From Phycisphaerae bacterium (GTDB lineage: Bacteria; Planctomycetota; Phycisphaerae; UBA1845): DNA of 64,000 nt. Location: the NCBI GenBank assembly GCA_963666835.2, contig CAXXGO010000007.1, positions 40,511 to 104,510 on the forward strand, in the 5' to 3' direction. The notes under the pieces were generated by a model. It was not told the DNA's origin and did not search any database. It worked only from the letters and a program-made list of their open reading frames with translations. Shown here piece by piece: positions 22,100-31,151 of the stretch. Each line of letters opens with the position of its first letter. Within the stretch, counting starts at the first letter, position 1. Made by a program: the position numbers and the translations under genes.

Positions 22100-22143
22100 T
22101 GCCCGCTTGCCGGCCTGTTTGCAATATTAGGGTGTCACCTTCT

Positions 22144-22650
22144 GTAGGGCAGGTCGAGGTACGAGACCTGCCGCTGTTTTAGCGTAATGTGCGCGGGTGC
22201 CCCGTCGCTTTAGCGGTGGGGGACTCGCGCGTTACATGCCACGGGTCAACAAGTTGACCCATGCCACCCATCTGGCACCCCCGGTAGGGCAGGTCGAGGT
22301 ACGAGACCTGCCGCTGTTTTAGCGTAATGTGCGCGGGTGCCCCATCGCTTCAGCGGTGGGGGACTCGCGCGTTACATGCCACGGGTCAACAAGTTGACCC
22401 ATGCCACCCGGCTGTCACCCCCGGTAGGGCAGGTCGAGGTACGAGACCTGCCGCTGTTTTAGCGTAATGTGCGCGGGTGCCCCATCGCTTCAGCGGTGGG
22501 GGACTCGCGCGTTACATGCCACGGGTCAACAAGTTGGCCCATGCCACCCATCTGGCACACCCGGTAGGGCAGGTCGAGGTACGAGACCTGCCGCCGTCTT
22601 CGCGCGATGTGCGCCGTTGTGGCAGGTCTCGTGCCTCGACCGTGCCCTAC
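22144..22650. repeat. Tandem 140-bp BIME-like REP mosaic (3 full units, a 4th REP and a convergent REP)
   Basis: REP-A starts at 22144, 22284, 22424 and 22564 (period 140) with near-identical linkers; inverted REP at 22621-22650. Confidence 0.9.
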
Positions 22651-22683
22651 GAGCTCTTCGCGCTATGCGCGTCTTTTGAACTC

Positions 22684-22890
22684 ACGCCAACGGCGTTTAA
22701 CAGCAAAGCCCAGGGTAAACGAAGCGGCGCAGCCGCGCAGCGCCACCCTGGGGCACGGCGCCCCTTTCCACACCAACCCCGAAGCGGGTTGAACAACGGC
22801 GCAACCCCTGTCGGGGTTGATCCTCGATGTCACCGTAATCCCAGGGTAGCCGCTGCGCAGCAACCCTGGGCTATAGGACGTAACGCCTAC
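22684..22890. repeat. Multi-hairpin palindromic repeat whose right arm is interrupted by the DUF1670 element (arm resumes at 24804)
   Basis: Left arm ACGCCaacGGCGT...AGCCCAGGGT mirrors right arm ACCCTGGGCT...ACGCCtac|GGCGT; related sequence at ~31895-31950. Confidence 0.7.
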
Positions 22891-22953
22891 CTTCCTGACA
22901 TATGTCCACCCGGGTACCTTGGTAACGGACTTCGGGACTTGGGAGGACTACGC

Positions 22954-23805
22954 ATGGGGCTGCGGAACAAGAAGAAGGAGAGGCTTGAGCGTCTTGACTC
23001 GAAGACACTGGATGCCAAGTTTTTGCACGAAATCAAGCACGGACTCCATTGTTCGCCATTCGAGGCCGAGGCGGTTCTCGATGTGGTCAAGGAAGTTTAC
23101 TTCCCGTACCTCGATGAACACGCCGGCAAGGCCCCACCTGGCAAGATTGGCTTGGTCGTCGTCGACGCCGACGAGCCTGCCGGGAAACCCGTCTGCGAAT
23201 GCCAGAAGCAGAACGTGTGCCTGACAATCCACCGAGGTGCAGAGGATGATCGACTTCTGGAGGAGGAGGGGCCGGTCGGCTTTCGACAAGCCCGCATCCC
23301 ACCGCTTTGCCAAGAAGCCCTGAGTCAAGGTGGGCTGCTCACGCGCGAAGATCTGGCCTACCGGATGTTCTTTGTTACGCCACGAACCATTACGCGCGAT
23401 TTGAACGCTCTCCGGAGTGCGTATCCCGGGGTGCTTATTCCTCTGCGAGGAATCGTACACGATCTTGGTCCCGTGTTGACTCATCGCAGCCAAATCGTGC
23501 GTTTGGCTCTGGAGGGAAAGACGACCTCACAGATCTGCACCATGCTTCGCCATTCACCGGCGGCTGTAGCGAACTACGTCTCGACATTCACCCGTTGTGC
23601 GCAGTTGGCAAAGAAAGGTATGCAGGTCGGGCAAATCGCCTTCCTTCTGCGGAGAGGCAAGCGGTTGGTACAACAGTACCTTGATCTCCTCGACGAATGC
23701 GCGGTCGACAAGAACATGGGCTATCACCTGGAAGAACTGATGCGCCTGGGTTGTTGTGGCGGGGGGAAAAAGGGACACGGTGAAGAGGGAAGATCCGATG
23801 GGTAA
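22954..23805 (+). CDS. DUF1670-like protein A (283 aa)
   Basis: ATG after GGAGGA; QGGLLTREDLA, PLRGIVHDLG, THR and HSPAAVANY motifs; the ORF-track extension to 22477 runs through repeats. Confidence 0.82.
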   Translation: MGLRNKKKERLERLDSKTLDAKFLHEIKHGLHCSPFEAEAVLDVVKEVYFPYLDEHAGKAPPGKIGLVVVDADEPAGKPVCECQKQNVCLTIHRGAEDDRLLEEEGPVGFRQARIPPLCQEALSQGGLLTREDLAYRMFFVTPRTITRDLNALRSAYPGVLIPLRGIVHDLGPVLTHRSQIVRLALEGKTTSQICTMLRHSPAAVANYVSTFTRCAQLAKKGMQVGQIAFLLRRGKRLVQQYLDLLDECAVDKNMGYHLEELMRLGCCGGGKKGHGEEGRSDG

Positions 23806-24571
23806 GCCGCGAGACACCAACAGCAGAAGATACAGTCCCCTGCAGGCGAAAACGCTGAGAAACGTGTTGGCTCACCGCATCGAAACGGAGTTTCCACGCA
23901 TAGGCGGCCCACGGATTCGCAACCTGTGCGCAGAGATGATCCTTGAGGTCATCGGTGCCCACGTTCTCCCGAAGGAGCATATCCAACATGGTCAGATACT
24001 CTGGATGGCGATCAGCAGCGCAGATCCCCCGAGTCAGCGTCGACGGATTGAGGATACCGATCTGCTTCCGGTGGTCTTGGACGTGAGTACCTTCGAGGAT
24101 ATCGAGATGCGTTTGCAGAAGAAGGGACGTGGAGAGTTGCTCTTACAAAAGAGCTTGAGGTTATGCCGGCAGGCGTACGAACAAGGGGGCGTTCTGTCCA
24201 ACTCTGATCTCTCGGAGTTGTTAGCAGTCAATGCGTCGGACGTCTCGCGATTGTTGGCGGCGTACGAACGCGAGACCGGTCAGATCGTCCCACGTCGCGC
24301 TACTGTCCACGATGTCGGCACAGGGCTTACGCACAAACGGATCATCTGTTTCAAACATTACGCAGAAGGCAAAGCGGCTAACGAAGTGGCTCGGGAAACG
24401 TACCACAGCCTTGAGGCTGTGGATCGTTACCTGGGCCAGTACGATCGCGTCCGCCACTGCCATCTTCAGGGGCTGACGGCAAAGGAGACAGCCCATGCTT
24501 TAGGTTGCAGCATCTTCCTGGTTCAGGAGTACCTGGAGATCGATCATGAGTTGGAGGGCCAGCATGCTTGA
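23798..24571 (+). CDS. DUF1670-like protein B (257 aa)
   Basis: Overlaps the stop of protein A by 8 nt; QGGVLSNSDL, PRRATVHDVG, THKRII and HSLEAVDRY motifs. Confidence 0.82.
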   Translation: MGKPRDTNSRRYSPLQAKTLRNVLAHRIETEFPRIGGPRIRNLCAEMILEVIGAHVLPKEHIQHGQILWMAISSADPPSQRRRIEDTDLLPVVLDVSTFEDIEMRLQKKGRGELLLQKSLRLCRQAYEQGGVLSNSDLSELLAVNASDVSRLLAAYERETGQIVPRRATVHDVGTGLTHKRIICFKHYAEGKAANEVARETYHSLEAVDRYLGQYDRVRHCHLQGLTAKETAHALGCSIFLVQEYLEIDHELEGQHA

Positions 24572-25118
24572 CTCGATGGCACAGCACGTCAGACTTGTGT
24601 GTGCTGGTCGAGAGGACAGGGCTCTGCTGAGGAGCACCCCGAGCGCTCGTACCAGTGCCGGGACAGGCGCGGGAGTCTGCATGCACGGCGGGCTCTCGCT
24701 CTCCCTGGCCTGTTCTGGCTCCCAAGCGACAAACCTTGGGGGTCTGGGGGCAAAGCCCCCGGTGATCGCCACACGGTCGCGGTGGACATATGTCACTATC
24801 TACGGCGTATTTGCGACCGCGGGTGCCCAGCGTTATCGGAGCAAAGGCCTGACCGGAGTGCATTCCTACACCGTGAACGGCTCTACCGCGACGCAGGCAA
24901 TCTGGCAAATCATGGGGGAAGACGGCGCCGCCCGAGGATTCGGTTGCGGCAGATTCACCGGGCCGACCGAGCTGGCCGCCCGGCAGCCATACCGGCGAAG
25001 CCCAGCCGCCAAAGAGGATTCGGCTTCGATACAAAGCCGACCGAGCCGATATCGCTGATCGGCGGATAACTCGATATTGCGACAGACCGACCCCATTTGG
25101 ATATAGTAAGAACAGCTC

Positions 25119-28618: not shown

Positions 28619-29026
28619 GTCGGAGTAGGAATCCCGGTTGCCCGGGACCCCCTCCACAGATCCCAGCGTGCGGGACTGCCGCACTGGGCTCCTACCTTGG
28701 GCCATAACGGCCAGGTGTCGGTCGGGGTAAGGATGTAGGATCTTGGGAGCGGGTATCCACTGCTTGGCCAGACGGTTCATGCGGGCCCAGGTAATCCGAG
28801 TCTTCTCGCTACGACGCCGGAGCGTCCAGCGCCAGAGACGAACAACCTCATCCCGAAACGCCGTTAAGGCCGGGTAGTTCCGCGGCACCGCATAATACCG
28901 ATAGTACCCGAGAACCACCGCTCGCAAATACGCACCCACCTCTCGAACGGGGGCATGCAGATGTCGCCGAAGCTCTTGCTTAATCGCTTTGAGCTTCGCA
29001 CGCCGTCGTTTCGCGACAGTCTGCCG
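28619..29026 (-). mobile_element. 5'-truncated copy of the group II intron (end of maturase plus domains V/VI)
   Basis: Near-identical to 4075-4482 with scattered substitutions; same 3' end CCTACTCCGAC. Confidence 0.92.
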
Positions 29027-29277
29027 CTATCCCTACGCCATCGTCTCGTCTTGTCGAGAATCCCGTCGCGCACAAGCGGTCTGGGCTTCGCCAGTCCATG
29101 GATGGCTCGCCGCAAACGCCCGGCCGAATCGCGTTTGTCTTCCTGCGGACCGATGATTCACCTCCGGTTGCTCCCCACCCCGCCTCACGGCGACGCAGTT
29201 ACCTTCAGTTACAGGCCGGAGAACGCATGCCTGAAGGGGACTTGCACCCCTCCGATCAAGTACACTCTTAGGCGCAC
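29027..29277 (-). mobile_element. 5' end (domain I fragment) of a second, different group II intron
   Basis: Minus strand begins GTGCG at 29277, then GAGGGGTGCAAGTCCCCT and GTAACTGCGTCGCCGTGAGGCGGGGTGGGGAGCAACCGGAGG, typical of domain I; no similarity to 5640-6001. Confidence 0.75.
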
Positions 29278-29355
29278 TAATCGCATGAAAGGCTGTCTCC
29301 CGCCGGACGGTAGGATGTCCGTTCGGCGGTCGGGAGGACCAATAGGGAGACGACC

Positions 29356-30543
29356 ATGAAGAAGGACAGAATGGTAGCGCAGATTGGCTTGGATAGCCAC
29401 AGGAAGTTCAGCTCGGTGACGGCACGGGGAGAAGACAACAGGATTGTATGGCGGCAGCGTCTCGAGCACTGGAATCGGGACGAGGTACGGGAACGCCTGC
29501 AGTCTTGGCCGGTTGGGACTCCCGTGATTCTCGAGGGGACGTTCGGGTGGGGCTGGTTGGCGGACGAGTTGACCGCGGCGGGGTTGGATCCGCACTTGGC
29601 ATCGAGTCGGAAAGTGGCTGGCTGGCGGGAGGTTCGGGGAATCGCGAAGTCCAACCGGACGGATGCAGATCTGTTGTCGGAGCTGTGGTCGGAGAAGTCG
29701 CGGTGGTGGGAGGTCTGGCTGGCGCCGCGGGCGGTTCGGGACGAGCGAGAACGGATGCGGTACCGAATGAGCTTGGTGCAGATGCAGACGCGGCTCAAGA
29801 ATCAGATTCACGCCATCCTGCATCGGCACGGGATCTTGCATGAGTTTTCCGACCTTTTCGGCCGGGCCGGCCGGCGTATGTTGGATGGTCTGGTAACGCC
29901 GAAGGATGAGACGCTTCGAGCCAGCGCGAAGGCTGCGTTGAAGGGGTATCTGCAATTGCTCGATCATGTGCGTCGCCAGATTGCACGGGTCACGCGAGAA
30001 ATTCGCCGGGAGCTCAAGAAGGATCCAAACGGCGAACGCTTGCGTACGATCCCGGGGATTGACGTGGTTTTGGCGTATACGATTCTGGCGGAGATCGGAC
30101 GAATCAGCCGATTCCCAAACCGGAAACACTTGGCTTCGTACGCCTTGTTGGCTCCGCGCGCGGACGACAGCGGTGATGAGGACGATGAGACACCCAAGGG
30201 GCGGCATGTGGGACGGATCGGTCGCCGTACGCTGAAATGGGCGTTTATCGAGGCCGCCCGCGGCGCAGTACGGAAGGATAAGCGTTTTCGGGAGATCTTT
30301 GACCGACGCACAGACGGGGGGAAGAAGGACCGCAATCGCGGCTACATCACCGTGGCTCACGATTTGACGCGTGTGGTACACGTGATGTGGAAAAAGGAGA
30401 TCGACTACATGGACGATCCGCCGGATCGTCCACGGACAGCATCAAAGAAACGCCGTCCGGCAAGAACGGCAAGGAAGCGACTTCGAAAGAAATCTCGTCC
30501 GGGAACGGGCCAGCCCGAGGACCCTATGGTCGTTGCTGTCTGA
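29356..30543 (+). CDS. IS110-family transposase/bridge recombinase
   Basis: IGLDSH, ILEGT and KSNRTDA (RuvC-like domain); LRTIPGI...LAEIG...RF and APRADDSG (Tnp domain with catalytic Ser). Confidence 0.93.
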   Translation: MKKDRMVAQIGLDSHRKFSSVTARGEDNRIVWRQRLEHWNRDEVRERLQSWPVGTPVILEGTFGWGWLADELTAAGLDPHLASSRKVAGWREVRGIAKSNRTDADLLSELWSEKSRWWEVWLAPRAVRDERERMRYRMSLVQMQTRLKNQIHAILHRHGILHEFSDLFGRAGRRMLDGLVTPKDETLRASAKAALKGYLQLLDHVRRQIARVTREIRRELKKDPNGERLRTIPGIDVVLAYTILAEIGRISRFPNRKHLASYALLAPRADDSGDEDDETPKGRHVGRIGRRTLKWAFIEAARGAVRKDKRFREIFDRRTDGGKKDRNRGYITVAHDLTRVVHVMWKKEIDYMDDPPDRPRTASKKRRPARTARKRLRKKSRPGTGQPEDPMVVAV

Positions 30544-30700
30544 GAAGACGGCTCCAGGCCTCGTAGTAAATGGGCCGCCCGTACCGGACGAGATCATGCG
30601 ACCCCGCGCCCGGTGTCCCATGGTGGCATCGGATCGACATCATGTTGTTATGTCGGCAGGCAAGCGGTAGCGCGAATGGATAGATGGACCGATCGAGAGA
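30492..30700 (+). ncRNA. Predicted bridge/seek RNA of the IS1111-type element (ends approximate)
   Basis: 11-bp stem 30492-30502/30584-30594 encloses an internal loop whose left strand GAGGACCCTA matches the flanking target; downstream TCATGCGA and ATGGATA match the two IS ends. Confidence 0.75.
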
Positions 30701-31151
30701 TCTAGTCCGAACCGGTACACGGACGAGACAGATACGAGAAAGACACTGGGAAACGCCCGCGGGGTCGGGCTTTCCCGCCTACGGCGGAACTGGGGGCGCT
30801 GCCCCCAGACCCCCGGAGTTTATCGCTTTGGACCAAGAGCAGACTGCAGAACATATGATAAGAGGCGTCCACCAGCTACGATGGACGCCCCTGCCCTTGA
30901 CCAGGTCGTCAAGAGTCTGCCCTCGGGTCTTGCGGGCGCTCGGGTCGCACTCCTGCGTTGCCCTACCCTCTCGCAAGACAACGCCAGGATAATCGGATTG
31001 ACCCCAATCGAACAGCCCCGTTGCCTGCCGAATCAGCAAGCAGCCGGGCCGAATGGGAATGTTTTATACTTGACCGGGACATGCCTTTCATGGATAGGGT
31101 CCGCTGTGCGGACCATCTGTCTTTGACCGTTTCGCTGCTCGAGAATGCACA

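Follow-up and report, generated by a model that had tools for sequence, protein, structure and literature searches.

Analysis of a 64,000-nt stretch of contig CAXXGO010000007.1 from a Phycisphaerae bacterium (referred to as the window; all coordinates are positions in it) revealed a mobile unit that carries two genes of the DUF1670 family. The unit comprises 1913 bp (22887-24799) and, like all of its features described here, is given on the plus strand. Its limits were set by comparison of six copies from the same genome, of empty sites, and of 32 relatives. The flanking dinucleotide CT is counted once, on the left, and 22889-24801 is an equally valid way of writing the limits. The unit splits a small target hairpin. 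The left half of this hairpin, ACGCC, together with the left CT, occupies 22883-22888, and the C of this CT (22887-22888) is the final base of the 5' arm. The core and the left repeat are separated by a left terminal extension of 7 nt, ACCTTCC (22889-22895), for which the majority of relatives, drawn from several phyla, have ACCTTC(C/T). It is followed by a left subterminal inverted repeat of 15 nt, TGACATATGTCCACC (22896-22910), which holds the palindrome GACATATGTC. A leader of 43 nt separates this repeat from orfA (22954-23805), which encodes 283 amino acids. The second gene, orfB (23798-24571), encodes 257 amino acids in the -1 frame relative to orfA and overlaps it by 8 nt. The non-coding right end between orfB and the right repeat has a length of 209 nt and contains a structured RNA module in gene sense (24604-24766), for which RNAalifold and a covariance model predicted three helical arms and a conserved single-stranded linker. 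The right subterminal inverted repeat, GGTGGACATATGTCA (24781-24795; 15 nt), is an inverted copy of TGACATATGTCCACC. Then follow the right terminal extension CTAT (24796-24799), the right CT (24800-24801), and the loop remainder AC with the right hairpin arm GGCGT (24802-24808). A scan for promoters and terminators gave chance-level matches only.

Most of this arrangement had been proposed in an earlier note made from the letters of the window, and the analysis bore it out. The two repeats are 100% complementary over their 15 nt, and GACATATGTC is a perfect 10-bp palindrome that is kept across phyla. The overlapping genes both match DUF1670 (PF07900), orfA (P0001) with an E value of 1.8e-37 and orfB (P0002) with an E value of 1.6e-49, and they are paralogues with 26% identity (E 4e-16). 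Removal of the 1913-bp insert restores ACGCC-TAC-GGCGT, which folds as a 5-bp stem with a 3-nt loop. The host sequence resembles a repetitive extragenic palindromic (REP) sequence or a miniature inverted-repeat transposable element (MITE). This REP/MITE-like repeat (22680-22886, no strand assigned) carries ACGCC-NNN-GGCGT hairpins at both ends; the right-arm hairpin is split by the element, and the mirror hairpin of the left arm, ACGCC-aac-GGCGT, was located intact at 22685-22697, as the note had claimed.

A search of the genome (6.0 Mb, 7 contigs) revealed six copies of the element, with 0 to 4 differences over the 1900 nt between the outer repeat edges (99 to 100% identity). All six are inserted in the terminal ACGCC-TNC-GGCGT hairpin loop of the host repeat, in the same orientation and with the repeat body on the left (6/6 copies), and the sequence 3' of the right arm GGCGTA varies among them. 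The genome contains 105 ACGCC-NNN-GGCGT hairpins, 52 of which adjoin the host repeat body; the loop is TTC in 40 of these 52, and one unoccupied hairpin with a TAC loop is present in the genome. About 44 host-repeat ACGCC-TNC-GGCGT hairpins are unoccupied, and empty sister sites read AACGCC-TTC-GGCGTA. When occupied sites are compared with empty ones, the insert falls between AACGC[CT] and [CT]TCGGCGT. The right junction reads CTAT-CT-AC-GGCGT in the window copy and CTAT-CT-TC-GGCGT in the five other copies. The duplicated CTAC core of the earlier note was therefore retained for the window copy and given up for the other five, which read CTTC on the right, so that CT is the only core shared by all. 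The CTAC is coincidental, because the remainder of the TAC loop matches the first two bases of the element. The circle junction predicted in the note, IRR-CTAT-CT-ACCTTCC-IRL (IRR and IRL, right and left inverted repeats), is the same string under the corrected CT core. A model that confines mobility to the interior (CACC...GGTG), with the 10-bp palindrome duplicated, was rejected because the six copies share their outer extensions in different hairpins and a single short site bears the palindrome.

The word GACATATGTC occurs 15 times in the genome, compared with about 2.9 occurrences expected from base composition. Of these words, the six copies account for twelve and short remnants for two; the remaining one belongs to a truncated right end. 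Since all 15 belong to the DUF1670 element or its remnants, and no other element with GACATATGTC repeats was found among them, the genome holds no master element. Three remnants were detected, each with a breakpoint inside the repeat palindrome; in the first two, the join falls exactly in its central region. The first (G000:C6:739695-739768) is a left-end/right-end form in which both outer extensions surround a single TGACATATGTCA and the interior is gone. The second (G000:C5:242189-242241) is a perfect right-end/right-end palindrome, the arms of which, as read by eye from the sequence, continue imperfectly into the flanks. The third (G000:C6:796205-796365) represents a second subfamily with GACAATTGTC repeats and consists of the orfB 3' end, the RNA module, and the interior of the right repeat joined to an inverted left extension. 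These breakpoints indicate that the palindrome is a rearrangement hot spot, at which either the proteins of the element or replication errors at palindromes may have acted.

Searching for relatives revealed a patchy family. DUF1670 was found in 1 of 40 related genomes, and in a phylum sample of 401 genomes the only one above the Pfam cut-off was that of the window itself. Homologues of orfA numbered 1432, of which the best 120 showed 70 to 89% identity and were mostly located on contigs of 1 to 3 kb; orfB gave 970 cluster representatives at 50% identity. According to their titles, 33 genome-record loci belong to Phycisphaerae, Planctomycetota, Acidobacteriota, Nitrospiraceae, Lentisphaeria, Deltaproteobacteria, and others, and a Pfam DUF1670 match was obtained in a Methanosarcina control genome (archaea). 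The relatives search was run with a four-sequence alignment; metagenome contigs yielded 263 relatives, of which 80 were kept. The ends were scanned in 105 loci, comprising the 80 from metagenomes, 24 of the 33 from genome records, and the window itself; nine genome loci (L073, L078-L082, L084, L085, and L087), which were short or distant matches or had no flanks, were left out. On the left, 58 of the 105 loci had the palindrome where it was expected, and on the right 56 did; many contigs stop inside the element. In 33 elements from several phyla the end plan is kept as ACCTTCC plus GACATATGTC ... GACATATGTC plus 4 to 5 nt, with inverted repeats built round GACATATGTC that measure 11 to 16 nt across phyla and 10 to 16 nt in one comparison of relatives. 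Unlike a MITE, the element carries two conserved genes, which are intact or fused in 32 of the 33. Three database proteins (P0123, P0128, and P0264) combine a DUF1670 unit with a zinc ribbon of the DnaG type or with a part of the UvrD helicase; such combinations probably arise from gene calls that read through an insertion located at the end of a gene.

The near-identical copies in different flanks, the patchiness of the family, and the close homologues in other phyla on short contigs all argue for mobility, which the earlier note had proposed; empty sister sites and the conservation of ends and landing geometry across phyla agree with it. The note had also named in advance three findings that would tell against this proposal, namely a lack of conserved ends, a lack of empty sites, and repeats shared with a known insertion sequence whose transposase acts in trans. 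Conserved ends and empty sites were found, and no other element sharing the repeats was found in this genome.

The target rule was derived from the 33 elements for which both junctions and flanks are available. L156 was left out because the script mistook a second left end for the right end; by eye, it reads CT/CT. The left/right dinucleotides are CT/CT in 20 elements, TT/TT in three, AC/AC in one, TG/TG in one, CT/CA in four, CT/CG in three, and CT/CC in one. Thus, the first base is equal on both sides in 33/33 elements and the second in 25/33, and all eight mismatched elements carry CT on the left (8/8). These exceptions argue against a 2-bp target duplication made by a staggered cut and for a crossover at one or two shared bases, because a staggered cut with fill-in would copy both target bases to both sides and leaves them unexplained. 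A symmetric two-strand exchange with a mismatched core predicts both arrangements equally often, whereas in the mismatched elements CT was seen on the left only. The simplest reading of the junctions would be that one dinucleotide is the element's own and that the crossover requires one identical base and is favored by two. When the empty site is rebuilt, 30 of the 33 elements give a hairpin with a stem of 4 bp or more; for 26 of the 33, the first base of the dinucleotide coincides with the final base of the 5' arm, ahead of a loop of 3 to 4 nt. A typical target is GCCCC(nnn)GGGGC; other stems are ACGCC, CGGCCGCC, TCCGCC, and TCGTCCC. Since the stem sequences vary and the position at the stem-loop boundary is constant, the target feature is shape and position more than sequence. 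As read from these junctions, the element lands in one orientation at the boundary between 5' stem arm and loop of a small GC-rich hairpin. Together, the copies, empty sites, and junctions demonstrate, at the level of sequence, the mobility of the DUF1670 element, its multiplication within the genome, and its target rule. Judged by the same comparisons, the unit is a real, recently active, hairpin-targeting insertion sequence.

The proteins encoded by the two genes were analyzed for domains and structure. The orfA product also matched HTH_23 (E 1.6e-5), and HTH_23 and HTH_29 were among the generic helix-turn-helix (HTH) matches in Pfam. In the AlphaFold2 model of orfB (predicted local distance difference test [pLDDT] score of 89.9), three helices, a beta hairpin, and a further helix make up the N-terminal domain, and three HTH modules follow (residues 108 to 257). 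Structure matches of orfB comprised sigma region 4, DeoR, DnaA domain IV, and the HTH of Tn3 resolvase (Z 5.5, 46 residues). In a sequence profile search of the PDB, the sole result was a match of the HTH region with a 'CAP repeat' chain (E 4e-6), the protein atlas returned HTH clusters only, below trust level, and PADLOC returned nothing meaningful. Alignment of 69 orfB relatives revealed three invariant residues, G174, H179, and Y211, and five residues conserved in at least 90% of the sequences, R121, D172, K180, H203, and Y245; most positions conserved in orfB are kept in orfA too. The residues common to the two paralogues, among them H171/D172, H179, H203/S204, Y211, and Y245 in orfB numbering, are located in HTH modules. 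The invariant residues H179 and Y211 lie within the HTH modules, and placement of the conserved positions on the model helices maps H203-S204 and R210-Y211 to a predicted turn and recognition helix. Conserved residues in the HTH modules, together with an equally conserved palindrome, fit a reading of the palindrome by the DUF1670 proteins. The score obtained for a predicted complex between A and B was 0.20, the mark being 0.32. Among natural proteins, some contain two or three DUF1670 units.

Near the orfA 3' end, a G6A5G3 run (23761-23774) was identified as a candidate slippage site for an A-B fusion; the orfB frame is open from 23756 and thus already across this run. In another genome, four copies of the element (L056, L057, L059, and L060) are identical except for G8 versus G7 in G(n)AAAAG at element position 861. 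The G7 form fuses A and B into a protein of 539 amino acids, and the difference is one at the DNA level. The run with the open orfB frame and the G7/G8 copies make it plausible that a fusion of A and B could be produced from the window element by slippage. The insertion sequences IS1 and IS3 encode OrfA, OrfB, and a transposase OrfAB made by frameshifting. The DUF1670 element resembles them in that its two genes overlap, with the second read in the -1 frame and a homopolymer run where they meet, and in that fused and unfused forms occur naturally. It differs in that its downstream gene is a paralogue of the upstream gene, whereas the downstream part of IS3 and IS1 is a DDE catalytic domain.

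The region of the right-end RNA (24604-24766) is more conserved across phyla than the DUF1670 proteins. RNAalifold gave -66 kcal/mol on the plus strand and -37 kcal/mol on the minus strand, with many G-U pairs that are A-C on the other strand. The covariance model R1 scored 156 bits at this position, found the RNA in 20 of the 33 elements, and missed it in 13. In an alignment of 30 distinct RNA sequences, which was fitted to the covariance model itself, 95% of the cells pair and two-sided changes occur in 37 of 47 pairs; 0 of 500 shuffles reached the observed level of covariation, and slid controls pair at 37 to 49%. No match for the module was found in Rfam. Apart from the DUF1670 elements and the third remnant described above, the module is present in all five copies of a resident insertion sequence of the IS1111 type, on the strand opposite to the transposase gene tnp (window 30786-30978, minus strand; 83.5 bits), and immediately downstream of an rve-type (IS3-like) transposase gene in another genome (L091:1501-1642). 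In a genome with four near-identical short elements, none of the 150 candidates scored matched the RNA model.

The function of this RNA as a guide was considered. Target 6-mers were absent from the right-end non-coding region, and the internal loop is nearly identical in the close relatives L072 and L076 despite different targets; the loops of the module are conserved and their pattern is not a programmable one. Three target-like words in the 5' leader (GTAACG, CTTCGG, and ACTACGC) were rejected as a guide since they overlap the ribosome-binding region and about 0.9 six-mers are expected by a rough estimate; nothing comparable was seen in the relatives inspected by eye. The tail that links the RNA to the right repeat is variable; it was likewise rejected as a target reader, because it does not track the target (L083 and L145 share a tail, as do L142 and L144). 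Absence of the RNA from 13/33 elements, the like loops of L072 and L076, and its position after an rve-type transposase gene indicate that it is no guide. The RNA is thus read as a portable accessory module of insertion sequences, probably neither a guide nor a requirement for the DUF1670 element.

The explanation that accounts best for these data overall, and that we consider somewhat probable, is an active site-specific insertion sequence of an undescribed family with the DUF1670 pair as its only conserved genes. A literature search found no paper containing 'DUF1670' or 'PF07900'. The element probably moves by undescribed machinery, and, in line with the earlier note, we tentatively infer that it may be autonomous, that it may pass through a circular intermediate, and that the DUF1670 pair may be catalytic. 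In the proposed mechanism, A and B, separate or as a slippage-made A-B fusion, would bind the palindromic repeats via their HTH modules and pair the two element ends. The joined ends IRR-CTAT-CT-ACCTTCC-IRL, probably on a circle, would then undergo conservative recombination with the hairpin, using one or two bases common to both; of these, the first would always match and the second usually, and the target would not be duplicated. The chemistry would be performed by the DUF1670 proteins themselves, as a new type of recombinase, or by a recruited enzyme, and the right-end structured RNA would act as an accessory module. Our proposal that the pair or its fusion represents a new recombinase class is a tentative one, held with somewhat less than even confidence. 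Such a recombinase would combine HTH modules with a small domain of unknown fold, would recognize its own palindromic repeats and the stem-loop boundary of a hairpin, and would exchange strands at one or two shared bases without duplication. If this holds, many bacterial phyla and, by the Pfam match in Methanosarcina, archaea would harbor a counterpart of the RNA-guided IS1111 that is guided by structure and works by protein alone.

Several results weigh against this explanation. The Pfam scan of both proteins (E values up to 1) gave only DUF1670 and HTH families and no catalytic domain, in line with the earlier note, which had seen no DDE, DEDD, HUH, or serine-recombinase signature. An NCBIfam scan gave no catalytic domain either, the only hit being a weak match to the N-terminal HTH of an IS630 transposase (NF033545, E 0.065). 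In the same Pfam scan, neither a HUH/Y1 domain nor a DDE family was matched, and structure searches gave no RNase-H-like fold. A serine recombinase catalytic domain had no Pfam match, with the structure search aligning only the HTH of Tn3 resolvase, and the absence of a fold match leaves a serine recombinase possible; a tyrosine recombinase was found neither in Pfam nor among the 50 best orfB structure matches. The Pfam scan does detect recombinases of the DEDD type, since the transposase gene of the resident IS1111-type element, used as a positive control, matched PF01548 and PF02371. In structure searches, residues 113 to 257 of orfB aligned only to HTH proteins (best Z 6.3), the best match of the N-terminal domain modelled alone (pLDDT 73.8) reached Z 4.7, and Foldseek against the PDB returned nothing at E values up to 0.001. 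Joined ends or an empty allele of the locus were not found in four of six public runs, which were searched as contigs only, so that rare forms are not visible; the loose ends in those runs are paralogous empty hairpins and the short remnant. A right-end-to-left-end junction, sought as two palindromes 10 to 20 nt apart, was not found in the fetched loci. The 33 junction pairs are interdependent, as L125 and L131 share a right flank, L142 and L144 represent one lineage, and four of the CT/CT elements come from one genome; moreover, it cannot be told from the junctions which flanking dinucleotide travels with the element. Finally, a recombinase gene of the IS110/IS1111 type is present in five copies in this genome and in 5/5 other genomes with DUF1670 elements, which makes a helper acting in trans possible. 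In the search for circle junctions, L156 was considered as a candidate and rejected, because it is a permuted contig with normal junctions.

The resident insertion sequence of the IS110/IS1111 type in the window (29278-31103) has a length of 1826 bp, with repeats CATGAAAGGC/GCCTTTCATG, a transposase gene at 29356-30543, and a 3' non-coding region of 560 nt. The fifth of its genome copies is cut by a contig end, and the four full-length copies show one differing position in the compared end stretches. Weak matches to group II intron RNA, below the Rfam gathering scores, adjoin its left end (28619-28693 and 29033-29194, minus strand; 36.3 and 25.2 bits).

With this resident element in mind, the DUF1670 element could be a non-autonomous look-alike of IS1111, in which the resident DEDD recombinase would cut and join in trans and the DUF1670 pair would bind the ends or regulate; we regard this as fairly unlikely. 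The layout does resemble that of the IS1111 group. As set out in two accounts (PMC11187229, PMC11208160), members of this group have subterminal repeats of 11 to 13 or 7 to 17 nt, asymmetric extensions, short left and long right ends, a right-end guide RNA, a CT core, scarless excision to a circle, and REP-type targets. As in ISEc11 and IS4321/IS5075, the repeats of the DUF1670 element are perfect and subterminal (15 nt) and its extensions asymmetric; it also has a short left and a long right non-coding end with a structured RNA on the right, CT at the crossover, no evident target duplication, and one-orientation insertion into REP-like palindromes. Moreover, the five resident copies carry the same RNA module, and PF02371 was found in all five other DUF1670-element genomes tested. 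This co-occurrence does not discriminate, and IS110-family genes are common anyway (6/14 control genomes). The resident repeats CATGAAAGGC differ from those of the DUF1670 element, and the resident flanks are not ACGCC hairpins. A DEDD recombinase needs a guide RNA matched to target and donor, whereas the RNA of the DUF1670 element has no target- or donor-matching loops, is dispensable, and in the resident element runs opposite to tnp. The extensions also differ: left and right, they measure 7 and 4 to 5 nt plus CT, compared with 7 or 6 bp and 3 bp in IS1111 (PMC11187229); accordingly, 13 bp would lie between the repeats of the predicted joined ends, compared with 10 or 9 bp in IS1111. The DUF1670 repeats hold a 10-bp perfect palindrome conserved across phyla, the core may also be TT, AC, or TG, and, in place of a recombinase with DEDD (PF01548) and Tnp (PF02371) domains, the element encodes only two DUF1670 HTH proteins.

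An unlikely alternative is that the DUF1670 proteins dock the element ends onto extruded hairpins and that a universal host enzyme acting on hairpins or REP sequences does the chemistry. Candidates are a SbcCD-type hairpin nuclease, a REP-associated HUH transposase, or a topoisomerase. The variable target stems with their constant shape and 5' stem-loop boundary fit structure-specific recognition, neither part of orfB gave a catalytic fold, and the spread of the element across phyla would require a widespread helper. However, the junctions are base-exact in 33 elements, unlike those of usual repair-mediated capture, and the proposal draws on general enzymology rather than on the present data. 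Members of the IS200/IS605 group and REP-associated HUH (Y1) elements make no target duplication, use small hairpins with a short adjacent word as targets, and have ends that are not simple terminal repeats. The DUF1670 element shares with them the lack of target duplication, ends other than simple terminal repeats, and the definition of targets by small hairpins and a short adjacent word; it differs in that it has no HUH/Y1 domain and its ends are true inverted repeats, and the data give no indication of single-stranded intermediates.

Cut-and-paste transposition of the IS630/Tc1-mariner type with a 2-bp target duplication, the DDE part being missing, unrecognized, or supplied from elsewhere, is very unlikely: the HTH_23 and HTH_29 matches, the weak NF033545 match, and the same dinucleotide on both sides in most elements are compatible with it, but no DDE domain or RNase-H-like fold was found, the repeats are subterminal rather than terminal, the shared dinucleotide is CT and not TA, and a true duplication would not give differing dinucleotides in 8/33 elements with CT always on the left.

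The favored explanation, an insertion sequence of an undescribed family with a DUF1670 pair, concerns an element that is mobile and abundant and yet without any recognized DDE, DEDD, HUH, serine, or tyrosine enzyme; known insertion sequence families are defined by these chemistries (PMC11208160). If the DUF1670 proteins catalyze, they would form a new class of recombinases that act on DNA hairpins with the precision of a single base, of interest to genome engineering as well as to the biology of mobile DNA. Otherwise, the element would be a transposase-less parasite that spreads across phyla via a borrowed enzyme, which would be new at such a scale. The analysis provides a testable anatomy with exact ends, a predicted joined form, a target rule, and a candidate slippage site, and it reveals an RNA module that is common to DUF1670 elements and unrelated insertion sequences.

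Directly upstream of the host repeat that bears the element, a tandem array was observed (22130-22619). It consists of about 3.5 units of 140 nt with 93 to 94% identity, each of which holds hairpin-forming words such as GGCAGGTCGAGGTACGAGACCTGCC.

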